Assembly: GCF_013122565.1 (NCBI RefSeq)
Contig: NZ_CP053258.1
Direction: 5' to 3' (one strand)
Length of the DNA: 64,000 nucleotides
Source: Escherichia coli
GTDB lineage: Bacteria > Pseudomonadota > Gammaproteobacteria > Enterobacterales > Enterobacteriaceae
Shown here: in pieces, positions 4,577 to 12,493 of the stretch
How positions within the stretch are numbered: position 1 is the stretch's first letter
How the letters are laid out: every line of letters begins with the position of its first letter
Notes under the pieces: generated by a model
What the model was told of the DNA's origin: nothing
Database searches by the model: none
The model's input: only the letters and a program-made list of their open reading frames with translations
Program-made: the position numbers and the translations under genes

Positions 4577-5064
4577 TAGGCACTTTACTTTTACAGCCTG
4601 TTTTCTGCTCAAATTATAAGCTTCAGCAAAGTAATGCAAATGCATTATTAGCAGCAGAAAGCGCCAGAACCAACGAAAAAAGAGAACATGTTTCCCATTT
4701 TGCGAGGCGCTTTCCAAATCGTCCGCTCAGTCCCCTCGCACGCCAGCGCTAAAACCACTATTTTGCAAATCTGTGACCTCCTTCACTCTCCATAAAGGCG
4801 GTGATCTAATGGTGTGGATCCACTTTCTGCTTTCGCTTGTCTGCCGTAAGCACTCGCTATTTCGTCATCTCTCCTTTTCACTTTTTCAGTTTGTCATTTT
4901 CATTTGCGGTCAACCGAAAGATCTGGAGTCGATTTTTCCAGGTTTCAACGCCGTTGTCGGGTTCACAAATTCACTTCTTTTCTTCTGATGTAATGCATTC
5001 AAAAGAAAATGAAAGTTTCAAAATGCAAGAATGCAACGAAATACTTTTTCAGGGAGCGATTAAC

Positions 5065-5835
5065 ATGCTAGATAGCCTAAGACGCCGCGAACAAATCATT
5101 GATTTGTTATGTGCCCAGGGAAGCGTACGCGTTGAGCCGCTCAGCATCCATTTTGGTGTCTCATCGGTCACGATCCGCAATGACTTACGGTATCTGGAGC
5201 AAAAAGGTTGCGTCATGCGTTCCTATGGCGGTGCCGTGTTGAATCAACACTTTGCGCTCGACAGACCCTTGCAGGATAAAGATCGCCTTAATCGAGATGT
5301 TAAAGTGCGAATTGCCGAAAAAGCAGCCAGTTTTGTCAAGGATGGCGATACATTAATTATCGATTCTGGTTCAACGACCACGCTAATTCCAGCTTCGCTA
5401 AAGGGGCGTCGGGATTTAGTCGTTATGACGAATGCCTTGAATATCGCCTGGGAAATGGCCAGTTTTGAACGGGTGGATGTTATGATCCTTGGTGGAAACG
5501 TTCGCCAGAGCGTCTTCTCCCTGTATGGGCCTTCGGCAGAACATCAACTCCGGCAGTATCGCTTTGATAAGCTGTTTCTGGGCGTGGACGGCTTTTGCCT
5601 TGAAGCAGGGATTACCACACCACATCCGGGTGAGGCACATCTGAACCAGGTAATGTGTCAGGTTGCTCAGGAAATCACAGTTGTCGCGGACTCCAGTAAA
5701 TTTGGCCGGAAAAGCTTCTGTATGATCGGCGAAGTGAGCGAGATAGATCGACTGATTACCGATAGTGGTATTCCGGATAATTACAAACACGCATTAACGC
5801 AAATGGGTGTGGAAGTTGTGATTGCAGATGAGTGA
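5065..5835 (+). CDS. DeoR-family transcriptional regulator, AgaR paralogue (256 aa), presumed regulator of the adjacent chb-like island
   Basis: ORF 4837-5835; the likely start is ATG 5065 (MLDSLRRREQIIDLL...) preceded by AGGGA. Helix-turn-helix VSSVTIRNDLRYLEQKG; C-terminal DeoR sensor domain. Confidence 0.75.
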   Translation: MLDSLRRREQIIDLLCAQGSVRVEPLSIHFGVSSVTIRNDLRYLEQKGCVMRSYGGAVLNQHFALDRPLQDKDRLNRDVKVRIAEKAASFVKDGDTLIIDSGSTTTLIPASLKGRRDLVVMTNALNIAWEMASFERVDVMILGGNVRQSVFSLYGPSAEHQLRQYRFDKLFLGVDGFCLEAGITTPHPGEAHLNQVMCQVAQEITVVADSSKFGRKSFCMIGEVSEIDRLITDSGIPDNYKHALTQMGVEVVIADE

Positions 5836-5879
5836 GAAAATGTGGCTGGAGATAAACGTCGCCAACCACATTGCGTTAT

Positions 5880-6791
5880 TTACGTTGTATGTTTGATTTG
5901 CAGTAAAGCCGCGCCTCGTACGCCGCTTGTCGCCCCATGAACGGCAGAAAATACGCGCGCAGGTTCCAGACCCGGAAGAAGGTAGCGCGTCATGGCTTTC
6001 GGCAATAAGGCATAAATCTCTTTAAAATTAGACAACCCACCGCCAAGAACAAATGCATCAACGTCGAGAATATGCTGCAATTGCGCCAGTGTACAACCAA
6101 CCATGTCTATCCAGGCGTTTATAGTGGTGATAGCACTGGAAATGCCATGTTGATGATTTTCTAATAATGTCTCCATAGTGATTTGCTCACCGCTGAAATG
6201 CTTATGTAACCAGAGCAAACCAGGGCCAGACTGGTAGCGTTCCACACACCCTTGCAAACCGCAGCCGCATTGTAATTCAGGAAGGTTATAGCGCCGCATA
6301 AATGTCGCCGGGAGCGGTAAATGACCAAACTCGCAGGCCATACGGTTACGGCCACGGTATAACTGGCCATCAATAACTAATCCCCCGCCCATACCCGTGC
6401 CGATAATCGCGCCAAAGATCCGGCTATATTGACGAGCTTGATCGGTATGCGCTTCTGATAGGGCGAAGCAACAGCAGTCATTATCCATTATTACCGGGCG
6501 GTTAAGGCGATTTGCCAGATCGGTTAATACCTGGCGTCCGGTCAGGCAGGGAACGTTAGAAGACAACAGTTTACCGGTGTGCCGATCCATAACGCCGGGC
6601 ATCCCGATACCTATTTTGCCTTGCGTACCCGTGGCCCAGTCAGCGGTATCAATCAGAGACACAAATGTGGATAGAAAAAGCGCGTAATCCTGAACAGGCG
6701 TAGCCACCCGCTTGCGCCAGCAAATTTGTAAATCCTGATCAAAGGCGACTATCTCTGTTTTGGTTCCGCCAATATCAACACCGTAAAACAT
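5880..6791 (-). CDS. ROK-family sugar kinase (NagK-like N-acetylglucosamine kinase type, 303 aa)
   Basis: MFYGVDIGGTKTEIVAF... ATP-binding motif, with the ROK zinc motif CGCGLQGC and HLP signature. Confidence 0.75.
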   Translation of the reverse strand: MFYGVDIGGTKTEIVAFDQDLQICWRKRVATPVQDYALFLSTFVSLIDTADWATGTQGKIGIGMPGVMDRHTGKLLSSNVPCLTGRQVLTDLANRLNRPVIMDNDCCCFALSEAHTDQARQYSRIFGAIIGTGMGGGLVIDGQLYRGRNRMACEFGHLPLPATFMRRYNLPELQCGCGLQGCVERYQSGPGLLWLHKHFSGEQITMETLLENHQHGISSAITTINAWIDMVGCTLAQLQHILDVDAFVLGGGLSNFKEIYALLPKAMTRYLLPGLEPARVFSAVHGATSGVRGAALLQIKHTT

Positions 6792-6809
6792 CGCTCATCT
6801 CCTTTGGTT

Positions 6810-8093
6810 TCACAGCACAACCAGGGTATTTTCCTTGCGAGCGCGTTCGGCGGCAAAGACCATCAGGTGACTTTCAAGTGATTCATTGGGGCCTGAGAGG
6901 ATCAGGTTTTGATCGCCCGCTAATACCGCCTGAATAAAGCGATCCATCAGATAGTAATCCCCACCACCGTGACCCCCCATTTGGGTGCGATTACCCGCTT
7001 CGATCTCCTCAATGGTGTATATAGTTTGCTGGTCGGTGAGAAAATCAAAACACCGAATGGTGTTGCCATCCCCTTCCAGATAGCCTTTCGAACCAAAAAG
7101 GCGGGTTTTGCGATCTTCCATTTTCGTAAAGGCCGTCATTGTAAAAGTGACGCTCTGCTGATGCGCAAATTGCATGTTGACCACTTGATGATCGACAACA
7201 TTGTTATCGCAGCAATAAACGCAGCGACCATAGGGACCGTCACGTAGCGACTGACGAACGTTTTCTTCTGTGGGGTTTGCCGTTAACACGCGACGGAAGT
7301 GAGGCGTACATTTATGGGCATCACCAAGATAAATTTTGCATGCGGACCACGGGCAGGTAGCTTCGACCTGGCAATCAAGGCAGCGATCGGCTGCACCTTC
7401 GGGCTGGTTTTGCTTAATAAAATGGTTAAGGCCGCCAAATGAGGTAACACTTTTACAATTATCCCCCATGATGTAGCGGATCCAGTCCAGATCGTGGCAA
7501 GATTTTTGCAAAAGCATAAATGACGATTCAGCTTCGTTGCGCCAGTTACCACGTACAAAAGAGTGTGCCTGGTGCCAGTAACCGACGGGTTCGAGATGCT
7601 GCATACTGATAATGTCGCCAATGATGCCGCTGTCGAGTAAGGATTTGAGTTTTTGTGTATATCGGGTGTAACGAAGAACATGAGCCACCGCTAATAACAC
7701 ATGATTGCGTTTCACGGCATCAATAATGATACGGCAATCTGCAGCTGTCGGTGCTAACGGTTTTTCCAGCAGGATATGATATCCCAAATCAGCAAATGCA
7801 ACGGCAGGCTCTTTATGCATATTGTCTTGCGTACAAATGAGGACTACATCAGCCATTTTGGGGGCTTTTGCAGCTTCTTTCCAGTCACTAAAAATATTGT
7901 CTGAAGAGATATTATGCTGGGCTACAAATTGCTCTCGATAAACCTCTCTGGGTTCAGCAACACCTACAACTTGCATTCTGTCTGGATGTTCAAGAGCATA
8001 ACGGGAATATATTTCCCCTCGTGCACCTGCACCTATCACTAAAACAGAAACTTTGTTTTTATTCATGGTGAAAAGACCTTCTGATAAATTCAT
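6810..8093 (-). CDS. Gfo/Idh/MocA-family NAD(P)-dependent oxidoreductase with an atypical Cys-rich C-terminal region (427 aa; alternative start at 8066)
   Basis: N-terminal Rossmann motif VLVIGAGARG and the EKP motif (LLEKPLAPT). The C-terminal segment contains CLDCQVEATCPWSACK...C...CVYCC. Confidence 0.7.
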   Translation of the reverse strand: MNLSEGLFTMNKNKVSVLVIGAGARGEIYSRYALEHPDRMQVVGVAEPREVYREQFVAQHNISSDNIFSDWKEAAKAPKMADVVLICTQDNMHKEPAVAFADLGYHILLEKPLAPTAADCRIIIDAVKRNHVLLAVAHVLRYTRYTQKLKSLLDSGIIGDIISMQHLEPVGYWHQAHSFVRGNWRNEAESSFMLLQKSCHDLDWIRYIMGDNCKSVTSFGGLNHFIKQNQPEGAADRCLDCQVEATCPWSACKIYLGDAHKCTPHFRRVLTANPTEENVRQSLRDGPYGRCVYCCDNNVVDHQVVNMQFAHQQSVTFTMTAFTKMEDRKTRLFGSKGYLEGDGNTIRCFDFLTDQQTIYTIEEIEAGNRTQMGGHGGGDYYLMDRFIQAVLAGDQNLILSGPNESLESHLMVFAAERARKENTLVVL

Positions 8094-11667: not shown

Positions 11668-11741
11668 AAAAATATCCTTATATACCGATTAATGTATCAC
11701 TTTGATTATTGTTGTAGATCAATCCTATTGATAGGGTAGGG

Positions 11742-12059
11742 TTACTTCTGTTGTTTTTTTATCATGGCAATGGCAGATTTTAATACGCCTAAACCATCAA
11801 TTTTCCCATATAACATTGAATCTATAACTTCCACTGGCTTTCCAGGTAATAAGCTTTGGATCTCTGATTGCATATAAGCAATTTGCGGTCCTAATAATAT
11901 AACATCAGCTTCCGGACCTTTCTCTGCAGCAACAGATTCGGAGAATGCTTCAATAATTACCGGCACATCATATTTTATTGCCTGCACTTTCATCTTAGAA
12001 ACTAGCAGAGATGTTGACATTCCCGCCGAGCAAAATAAATATATTCTTTTCTTTTCCAT
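11742..12059 (-). CDS. PTS lactose/cellobiose-family EIIB, ChbB paralogue (about 105 aa)
   Basis: ORF 11742-12122; likely start [23 protein letters not shown] with the phosphorylatable Cys in the CSAGMSTS motif. Confidence 0.78.
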
Positions 12060-12449
12060 AGGGACTCCGGATATATTAAGGTATAATATATTTGTCATGC
12101 CATAAATGGCATATAATGCCACTTATAATTAATAAAACACCGATTTTTATATTGATTTCCTGAATGTCGTCTTTAGGTATTAATCTCAGGAGTTTCAGGA
12201 ACCATTGAATAATCTGGTTTATAGAATTGAATGTCAAGTTAGTGAAATGGTGGGAGTGCGGTAATAAAAATAGTGCGGCTTTCGGTTGGTTTCTTTTTTA
12301 TCAGAACGAAAAGTACAGTTAAAATGATTTCTGGATAAATTGAAGTTTTTTCAATGAATTACATTTTTGTCTGCCCGTGGGAATGAAAAAAACAATAATC
12401 AAAAAATACTTTAGATATGTGAGCGTTATCACTTCCTTTTTGTTGGGAA

Positions 12450-12485
12450 AACGGGGAAACACAGTCTCCCCATTTTCCGTTCATG
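12450..12485 (-). terminator. Rho-independent terminator downstream of garD
   Basis: On the minus strand: GGGGAGACTGTGTTTCCCC hairpin followed by GTTTTCC, immediately after the garD stop. Confidence 0.5.
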
Positions 12486-12493
12486 CGAGGTCG

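Follow-up and report, generated by a model that had tools for sequence, protein, structure and literature searches.

A rare chb-like island between prlF and garD of Escherichia coli that probably arose by exchange of the transport genes of an ABC-importer operon

The best described relative of the locus reported here is the chbBCARFG operon of Escherichia coli, in which ChbG is a monodeacetylase and ChbF a hydrolase of glycoside hydrolase family 4 (GH4). The locus itself, termed the island, lies between prlF and garD on contig NZ_CP053258.1 of E. coli assembly GCF_013122565.1, of which a stretch of 64,000 nucleotides, termed the window, was analyzed; all positions refer to the window unless another locus is named. 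Like the chb operon, the island encodes homologues of EIIB, EIIC, GH4 and YdjC in the same order (B-C...F-G), and the chemistry to be expected of both would comprise phosphorylation by a phosphotransferase system (PTS), de-N-acetylation and NAD+/Mn2+-dependent cleavage of a 6-phospho-beta-glucosaminide. The island differs in its position (prlF/garD instead of osmE/katE), in being without chbA (EIIA) and chbR, in having a promoter and repressor of the AgaR type, and in carrying two additional genes in the same transcription unit. These encode a ROK-family kinase and a protein of the Gfo/Idh/MocA fold, for which GFO is used as the working name.

For GFO, two groups of described enzymes are closest. 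NanY (YjhC) and NanOx, the best solved relatives in profile searches (E 5e-22 and E 1e-20, respectively), are redox-neutral NAD enzymes which open the glycosidic-type C-O (anhydro) bond of 2,7-anhydro-sialic acid (2,7-anhydro-Neu5Ac), and both sit, like GFO, in sugar-scavenging operons beside a transporter. However, only the N-terminal half is matched, with an identity of about 20-25%, the substrates are of another class, and a four-cysteine site and a GHGGGD loop found in GFO are not known in NanY and NanOx. The GH109 enzymes, NAD+-dependent alpha/beta-N-acetylgalactosaminidases (Elizabethkingia NagA and Akkermansia AmGH109A), share with GFO the Gfo/Idh/MocA fold, the lysine of the EKP motif, the catalytic histidine of the H-D pair, a GGHGG-type loop and the link to N-acetylgalactosamine (GalNAc). 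Unlike these, GFO is predicted to be cytoplasmic (no signal peptide) and has the extra invariant four-cysteine site, and the similarity is confined to the Rossmann domain and the loop. The known NAD-dependent glycosidases of this fold are GH109, GH177 (a beta-N-acetylglucosaminidase/beta-glucosidase), GH179 and GH188 (PMC10755693, PMC11535203, PMC11701701).

In comparison with K-12, the island spans positions 4651-12493 (7843 bp) and takes the place of 73 bp of the spacer between prlF and garD. Homology to K-12 is lost after position 4650, which is 74 bp upstream of prlF, and is regained at the garD stop codon at 12494; the flanks agaR-yhaV-prlF and garD-garP match more than 5300 complete E. 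coli genomes at 97-99% identity. Seven intact open reading frames (ORFs) were found inside, six on the (-) strand and one convergent regulator on the (+) strand. The six are separated by only 12-77 bp and end at an inverted repeat which they have in common with the convergent regulator and which is likely a bidirectional terminator; this arrangement indicates that EIIB, EIIC, GH4, YdjC, GFO and ROK form one operon. The GC content of the island is 44.3% versus 51-52% in the flanks, with 42.1% in the chb-like part, 48.2% in DeoR-ROK-GFO and 35-36% in EIIB and the promoter region. RefSeq already annotates the island gene by gene, and proteins identical to all seven ORFs are deposited as QJU26862-QJU26868. 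For GFO, the form of 418 amino acids is found in public databases, and a form of 427 amino acids starting at 8093 is absent there. A preliminary description, made from the sequence of the window, had listed the same genes and strands with a convergent DeoR regulator, between two genes adjacent in K-12, and had characterized the products as Chb-like but diverged and the region as AT-richer, especially at 8.1-12.5 kb; all of this was borne out, and the K-12-type empty prlF/garD junction was found in 5157 of the 5426 complete E. coli genomes (95%). The block which it had begun at 4780 is real, but its left edge lies about 130 bp further left.

The closest relatives of the island GFO outside the island, with 79-85% amino acid identity, were found in Citrobacter werkmanii (locus L011), Enterobacteriaceae bacterium RIT691 (L012) and an Escherichia-like genome. 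These three loci occupy the same chromosomal slot as the island, between garD (or garK) and agaR. Each is of an ABC-transporter type, in which genes for a substrate-binding protein (SBP), two permeases and MalK precede GFO-ROK and a convergent AgaR-like gene, instead of EIIB-EIIC-GH4-YdjC; the loci recorded with the ABC version in that slot are L011, L012, L004, L007 and L008. Nucleotide homology between the PTS and the ABC version covers two stretches, namely positions 4964-8057, i.e., DeoR, ROK and GFO up to its start, and positions 12193-12493 upstream of the first gene, and none was found for the genes between them. In an alignment of five promoter regions, the blocks AAGTGATAACGCTCACAT, TTTTCRTT..GATAAAAAAGAAACCTACCGAAAGCCG and a -35 element TTGACATTC with the -10 element GATTAT were common to all, and homology stops about 20 nt downstream of the -10 element. 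Because homology flanks it on both sides, a cassette at about 8067-12190 is taken to have replaced the ABC genes in situ, and we hold this architecture and the exchange of the transport module to be highly probable. The two-part GC content agrees with such a swap.

According to this reconstruction, the ancestral order would have been promoter, SBP, permease, permease, MalK-type ATPase, GFO and ROK kinase, with a convergent AgaR-family repressor. A chbB-chbC-chbF-chbG cassette, the source being a chitobiose-type PTS operon after loss of chbA and chbR, would then have taken the place of the four ABC genes at this site in a few Escherichia lineages, while promoter, candidate operator, GFO, ROK and repressor would have been kept. 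The designation as an island of chb operon paralogues in the preliminary description hence applies to 8067-12190 (chbB'C'F'G') only, whereas GFO, ROK, the repressor and the promoter/operator region 12191-12493 appear to come from a different, older module. The retention of promoter and regulator suggests a common set of downstream steps which both transport modules supply. Beyond Citrobacter werkmanii and RIT691, ABC-type loci with homologous GFO, ROK, repressor and promoter/operator region were found in Serratia and Photobacterium (about 60-66% amino acid identity of GFO to the island); the slot itself is shared by those of Citrobacter and Escherichia-like genomes. In place of the PTS, GH4 and deacetylase of the island, the ABC-type loci have a CUT1 ABC importer, the SBP of which had Listeria Lmo0181 as best match in the PDB, followed by assorted oligosaccharide binders, and was uninformative on the sugar. 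The island would accordingly represent a clean natural case of modular operon evolution, in which a PTS with a phosphoglycosidase became the front end in place of an ABC importer, and chitobiose-type genes were rewired under an AgaR-type regulator beside GalNAc genes.

The DeoR regulator of the island is 43% identical to the neighboring K-12-type AgaR and clusters at ≥ 90% with AgaR-like proteins of Citrobacter. The best σ70 match in a promoter scan (10 of 12 positions, -35 TTGACA and -10 GATTAT) is located at 12237-12209 inside the conserved block. A candidate AgaR-type operator lies at about 12276-12315, where a block TTTTCRTT..GAAACC..CCGAAAG upstream of the -35 element is conserved across genera. 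The leader of 131 nt between this region and the EIIB gene showed no significant similarity to the regions upstream of chbB in K-12, Superficieibacter or locus L092 using blastn-short; the idea that 12060-12190 is a leftover chb promoter was rejected for this reason.

Of the canonical chb gene set, the island contains homologues of B, C, F and G only; neither an EIIA nor an AraC-type gene is present, and the spacer between EIIC and GH4 measures 77 bp. Relative to the K-12 proteins, identity amounts to 81% for ChbB in the 93 residues of the BLASTP alignment (77% over full length), 74% for ChbC, 74% for ChbF and 59% for ChbG. EIIC, EIIB and YdjC score above the equivalog cut-offs set in NCBIfam for ChbC, ChbB and ChbG. 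The nearest relatives outside the island (79-80% for GH4, 63-69% for YdjC) all belong to complete chbBCARFG operons, either at the canonical osmE/katE site in Superficieibacter and another enteric bacterium, or in an extra copy between frdD and blc in some Salmonella. The cassette therefore has the appearance of a chb operon which lost chbA and chbR. Identities of the island proteins to any canonical orthologue are 71-80%, whereas canonical orthologues of different genera share 81-87%, and the island proteins are, judging from these values, clearly paralogous or xenologous and distinct from the canonical operon. Columns conserved to ≥ 97% in 117 ChbF orthologues were used to examine GH4, which deviates at 12 of about 246 such near-invariant columns (leave-one-out control: median 0, 95th percentile 5). 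The deviations include a cluster, F238D, P241T and G245N, immediately before the segment LLPCxYLxYY. In YdjC, 4 of the 87 near-invariant positions are altered, one of the changes being H127S within the motif HLDSHHH. The substitutions in both enzymes are compatible with a shifted specificity without proving it. Apart from the island, Superficieibacter sp. 1612_C1 has two complete chbBCARFG operons in tandem (L091, 342-11128) and some Salmonella enterica an additional one between frdD and blc (L097, 4589-9759). In Enterobacteriaceae, operons of the chb type are evidently relocated and duplicated as whole units.

The only models matched by GFO are generic ones for Gfo/Idh/MocA, and its Rossmann motif (NAD site) begins at residue 6. 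Residues invariant in an alignment of 24 sequences were followed in 122 diverse representatives of the family, 112-122 of which keep them. The lysine of the EKP motif, K102, is kept in 119 and the pair H191-D192 in all 122; Cys229, Cys232, Cys238 and Cys282 are kept in at least 120 and are a probable metal site. The C-terminal loop G-H366-G-G-G-D has the histidine in 115. When the last 95 residues of GFO were searched against the whole PDB, the single best match was the Akkermansia GH109 (6T2B) with E 0.36, which is weak alone. In this match TQMGGHGGGDYYLMDRFI is aligned with TKMGGHGGMDFVMLSRIV, MGGHGGGDY facing MGGHGGMDF of 6T2B and His366 coinciding with His404. His404 is one of the three proposed catalytic residues of the Akkermansia GH109 and is structurally conserved in GH188 (PMC10755693), and the title of Teze et al. 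(2020), as cited there, places the catalytic acid/base of GH109 in a "conserved GGHGG loop" (PMC10755693). In the family, TAT-like (twin-arginine translocation) N-terminal signals were detected in 7 of the 122 representatives (P0462, P0464, P0482, P0495, P0527, P0546 and P0571), all of which keep the four cysteines and the GHGGGD loop, so that exported versions of the enzyme appear to exist. Export by TAT usually accompanies a permanently bound cofactor in this fold (GFOR, GH109), and by analogy the signals may point to a tightly bound cofactor in the GFO family.

The family is large. At least 595 matches were found in contigs representing one genome per species, and clustering at 50% identity gave at least 868 representatives with E 1e-30 or better; identities of 50-60% extend from E. 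coli to Chloroflexi, the PVC (Planctomycetes-Verrucomicrobia-Chlamydiae) group, Actinobacteria and Thorarchaeota. Genes at a distance of at most 5 kb from GFO were counted at 89 loci. Components of an ABC importer were present at 30, a sugar kinase (ROK, APH, BadF or GalK type) at 32 and genes of the Aga/tagatose pathway at 15; the partner was a ROK protein in 21. The Serratia locus holds GH123, ABC, GFO, ROK, AgaR-like, AgaS and KbaY genes, and in Vibrio profundi KbaZ-AgaS-KbaY adjoins ABC-GFO. In Photobacterium, ABC, GFO, DeoR and ROK abut a complete aga-type cluster with KbaZ, AgaS, a mannose-type PTS and AgaA, and at a further locus (L096) ABC-KbaY-AgaS-KbaZ is divergent from GFO-ROK. GFO occurs with AgaS, a PfkB kinase and a sugar kinase in Ktedonobacter and Deinococcus, and is adjoined by a GH29 fucosidase or a galactokinase in other phyla. 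In the window, the island abuts agaR-kbaZ-agaVW. We infer as a common theme that GFO supplies a hexosamine-type sugar to a kinase, often inside the GalNAc/tagatose pathway. Because of the recurrent linkage to AgaS, KbaY, KbaZ and PfkB, the operon probably belongs functionally with the adjacent aga (GalNAc/galactosamine) system as much as with chitobiose.

Some layouts are of another kind. In a Vibrio sp., genes for an APH-type kinase and a type-2 GalT-like uridylyltransferase come after those for ABC and GFO, and in two Chloroflexi-type genomes the genes after GFO encode an NTP-transferase and an APH kinase (loci L006, 10001-13500; L010, 10001-13314; L095, 8001-11337). They look like salvage of sugar-1-phosphates and UDP-sugars rather than catabolism. 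The Vibrio layout resembles the bifidobacterial galacto-N-biose/lacto-N-biose pathway (ABC importer, GH112 phosphorylase, NahK, GalT and GalE), with GFO at the position of the disaccharide-cleaving enzyme. Unlike in that pathway, no GH112 phosphorylase is present, and the E. coli island would rely on its ROK protein, presumably a 6-kinase as NagK is, and on the Aga and Nag routes instead of the UDP-sugar route. For the ROK protein, NagK was the nearest model, below its cut-off, and the fructokinase model gave 242 bits.

The island was present in 3 of the 5426 complete E. coli genomes, at 92.4% nucleotide identity (hosts goat, cattle and human), and the ABC-transporter version in none of the 5426. 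The accessory status proposed earlier is in line with these counts, the block being far from universal and its proteins not near-identical to chbBCARFG. Only two genomes are known to have the window-type YdjC allele. A commoner allele was found in a few dozen contigs, including those of the cryptic-clade Escherichia sp. E3659, E4385 and 94.0001. When the window (4569-12568) was compared with the other allele in E. coli R32_14_1F (L001), identity per 400 nt varied as a mosaic between 81 and 99%, and the flanks of the two were 98-99% identical; the divergence of the alleles implies repeated recombination among diverged Escherichia lineages. GFO of the window is 89% identical to every other island GFO, and those others are mutually 96-100% identical. 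Against the R32 allele, the ratio of non-synonymous to synonymous substitution rates (dN/dS) was 0.015-0.16 for all island genes, at a dS of 0.1-0.65 per gene; for GFO it was 0.10. All island genes are under purifying selection.

A mobile-element origin was rejected: no integrase or transposase ORFs exist within 4651-12493, no repeats flank the island, and the junction is located in an intergenic spacer. Vertical inheritance of GFO-ROK-DeoR from an L004-like lineage was also rejected, the nucleotide identity being 73-80% compared to 96% for the flanking agaR. In the simplest reading, the island spread by homologous recombination among Escherichia lineages. Horizontal acquisition, as suggested in the preliminary description, is plausible as such, but in view of the missing mobility genes and repeats, introgression from other Escherichia lineages by homologous recombination fits better, because the island also occurs in E3659, E4385 and 94.0001, which belong to cryptic clades.

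The explanation which we favor for the whole, with somewhat more confidence than doubt, is that of a chimeric accessory catabolic locus which originated by the swap described above and would work as follows. A beta-linked N-acetylhexosamine di- or oligosaccharide or glycoside would be imported and phosphorylated by EIIC/EIIB, the EIIA function being borrowed, probably from ChbA of the canonical operon. The ChbG-like enzyme would remove the N-acetyl group, and GH4 would split the product into hexosamine-6-phosphate and a remaining sugar or glycoside. This remainder would be processed by GFO, acting as a cytoplasmic, redox-neutral and NAD+-dependent bond-cleaving enzyme akin to GH109, GH177 or NanY. 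The freed N-acetylhexosamine, probably GalNAc and/or N-acetylglucosamine (GlcNAc), would be phosphorylated by the ROK kinase, and the products would be fed into the Nag pathway and into the Aga pathway (AgaA/AgaS/KbaYZ) encoded next to the island. Control of the single promoter would be exerted by the AgaR-like repressor, not by ChbR. Catabolism of an amino-sugar glycoside tied to aga and nag is judged likely. Any named substrate is improbable in itself; GalNAc-containing beta-disaccharides, e.g., of the LacdiNAc type (GalNAc-beta-1,4-GlcNAc), or GlcNAc-beta-GalNAc cores of mucin O-glycans, are guesses. That GFO is a glycosidase rather than a dehydrogenase or epimerase is given not quite an even chance. 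Only tentatively, the family may represent widespread, unrecognized, cytoplasmic (occasionally TAT-exported), redox-neutral NAD+-dependent glycosidases which free GalNAc or another N-acetylhexosamine for kinase-dependent catabolism or salvage, defined by the GH109-like GHGGGD loop and the invariant four-cysteine metal site and occurring in Enterobacterales, Vibrio, Chloroflexi, the PVC group, Actinobacteria, Deinococci and Asgard archaea. If so, GH4 and GFO would be two NAD-dependent glycosidases of related mechanism in one island, which attack a single glycan fragment of host or invertebrate type one after the other. Confirmation would add a missing step in GalNAc-glycoside catabolism across many phyla and explain a niche trait of rare Escherichia lineages. 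For a strongly conserved family of the oxidoreductase fold, the partners and the GH109-like loop provide a specific biochemical hypothesis.

Several points weigh against this explanation. The island encodes no EIIA, hence uptake would rely on a putative partner in trans. GH4 may already cleave the imported sugar, and a second glycosidase would then require a trisaccharide or glycoside, or a second substrate. GFO gave no match to the Pfam GH109 C-domain at E up to 10; its profile match to the GH109 structure 2ixa (E 6.6e-8) covers the N-terminal domain only, and in overall fold it resembles ordinary dehydrogenases no less than glycosidases. AgaR repressors reportedly bind an operator with repeated CTTTC-type boxes, for which the conserved promoter block is no more than a candidate. 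Full-text literature searches turned up nothing on this operon or the GFO family.

A plain second system for chitobiose or cellobiose, in which the Chb-like proteins are isofunctional with their canonical counterparts, the ROK protein is a NagK-type GlcNAc kinase and GFO a mere passenger, is considered unlikely. Such a system would readily explain why three proteins pass the equivalog cut-offs, which makes plain chitobiose a possible substrate, why GH4 and YdjC have their nearest relatives in canonical chb operons, why ROK is closest to NagK, and why additional chbBCARFG copies exist in Superficieibacter and some Salmonella. It does not fit the absence of chbA and chbR, the AgaR-type promoter and repressor from the ABC locus, the divergence of the Chb proteins beyond that of canonical intergeneric orthologues, the deviant GH4 columns clustered beside the catalytic tyrosine region, H127S of YdjC, and the purifying selection on GFO. 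Slightly more weight, though still well short of an even chance, is given to a variant with the architecture as favored, in which GFO works as a dehydrogenase, epimerase or anhydro-sugar hydratase rather than as a glycosidase and converts a free monosaccharide, e.g., a GalNAc/GlcNAc epimer or a 1,6-anhydro-N-acetylhexosamine, into the substrate of the kinase. The similarity of its fold to ordinary dehydrogenases has been mentioned; however, the accompanying CUT1-type ABC importers most resemble oligosaccharide binders, the enteric ABC loci hold no other glycosidase, the GGHGG-type loop is a hallmark of GH109, and the GH29 fucosidase and GalK neighbors suggest oligosaccharide substrates.

Scavenging of a peptidoglycan disaccharide, GlcNAc-beta-1,4-(anhydro)N-acetylmuramic acid, is regarded as very improbable. 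After uptake of the disaccharide through the PTS, GH4 would release glucosamine-6-phosphate, the 1,6-anhydro ring would be opened by GFO, and N-acetylmuramic acid would be phosphorylated by ROK. The linkage to AgaS, KbaY, KbaZ and PfkB and the AgaR-family regulator would be left unexplained by this route and no MurQ-type etherase is linked, although the chemistry would be NanY/NanOx-like, trios of GFO, NTP-transferase and APH kinase resemble AmgK/MurU salvage, and PTS of the chb type are established to take beta-1,4-linked GlcNAc disaccharides. Least probable of all, to the point of being hardly credible, is that the island was left behind by a transfer event, has no function and is decaying. 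The island is very rare and without EIIA, and yhaV next to it is a pseudogene in the window strain; but decay is rejected because of the low dN/dS values, and none of the seven ORFs is disrupted, deposited proteins match them exactly, and the promoter/operator region is conserved across genera.

Table 1. Features of the island and its junctions in the window.
Feature	Position	Strand	Evidence or remark
Left junction and region upstream of the DeoR/AgaR-like gene	4651..5064	+	K-12 homology stops at 4650; many CTTTC/GAAAG boxes
AgaR-family DeoR repressor, 256 amino acids, convergent with the operon	5065..5835	+	NF040755 AgaR, 363 bits (cut-off 260)
Convergent spacer with inverted repeat AATGTGGCTGG...CCAACCACATT	5836..5879	.	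Sequence inspection
ROK-family sugar kinase, NagK-like, last operon gene	5880..6791	-	NagK model, 310 bits (cut-off 380)
GFO, Gfo/Idh/MocA fold, 418 amino acids; four-cysteine site, GHGGGD loop	6810..8066	-	
YdjC/ChbG-like de-N-acetylase (predicted)	8105..8863	-	NF002559, 351.6 bits (cut-off 227)
GH4, predicted NAD+/Mn2+-dependent 6-phospho-beta-glucosaminidase, ChbF-like	8876..10228	-	74% identity to K-12 ChbF
PTS EIIC, lactose/cellobiose family, ChbC-like	10306..11667	-	NF007634, 806.7 bits (cut-off 760)
PTS EIIB, ChbB-like, first operon gene	11742..12059	-	NF007796, 189.7 bits (cut-off 157)
Leader peculiar to the PTS version, 131 nt	12060..12190	-	No counterpart in ABC-type loci (multiple alignment)
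Promoter/operator region from the ABC-type locus	12191..12493	-	Homologous to the DNA preceding the SBP gene of Citrobacter werkmanii, L004 and RIT691
Hairpin, garD-distal	~12444-12478		Within 12191..12493

Outside the island, the following was observed. The gene yhaV (3777-4241, (-) strand) has a nonsense mutation, Q41*, compared to K-12, with the stop codon at 4119-4121, while an intact prlF (4241-4576) encodes the antitoxin; the toxin of this pair is probably inactive in the window strain. The three complete E. coli genomes with the commoner island allele are without yhaV-prlF, and the island directly adjoins agaR there, i.e., the toxin-antitoxin pair is a presence/absence variant at the same hotspot. 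The gene agaW (98-877, (-) strand), truncated to a pseudogene in K-12, is full length here with 259 amino acids; the window strain probably has a complete GalNAc PTS beside the island. Rfam matches were obtained for rnpB (RNase P RNA, 18755-19131), the sRNA ES036 (37831-37873) and naRNA4 (62700-62781), all of which are ordinary for the region.

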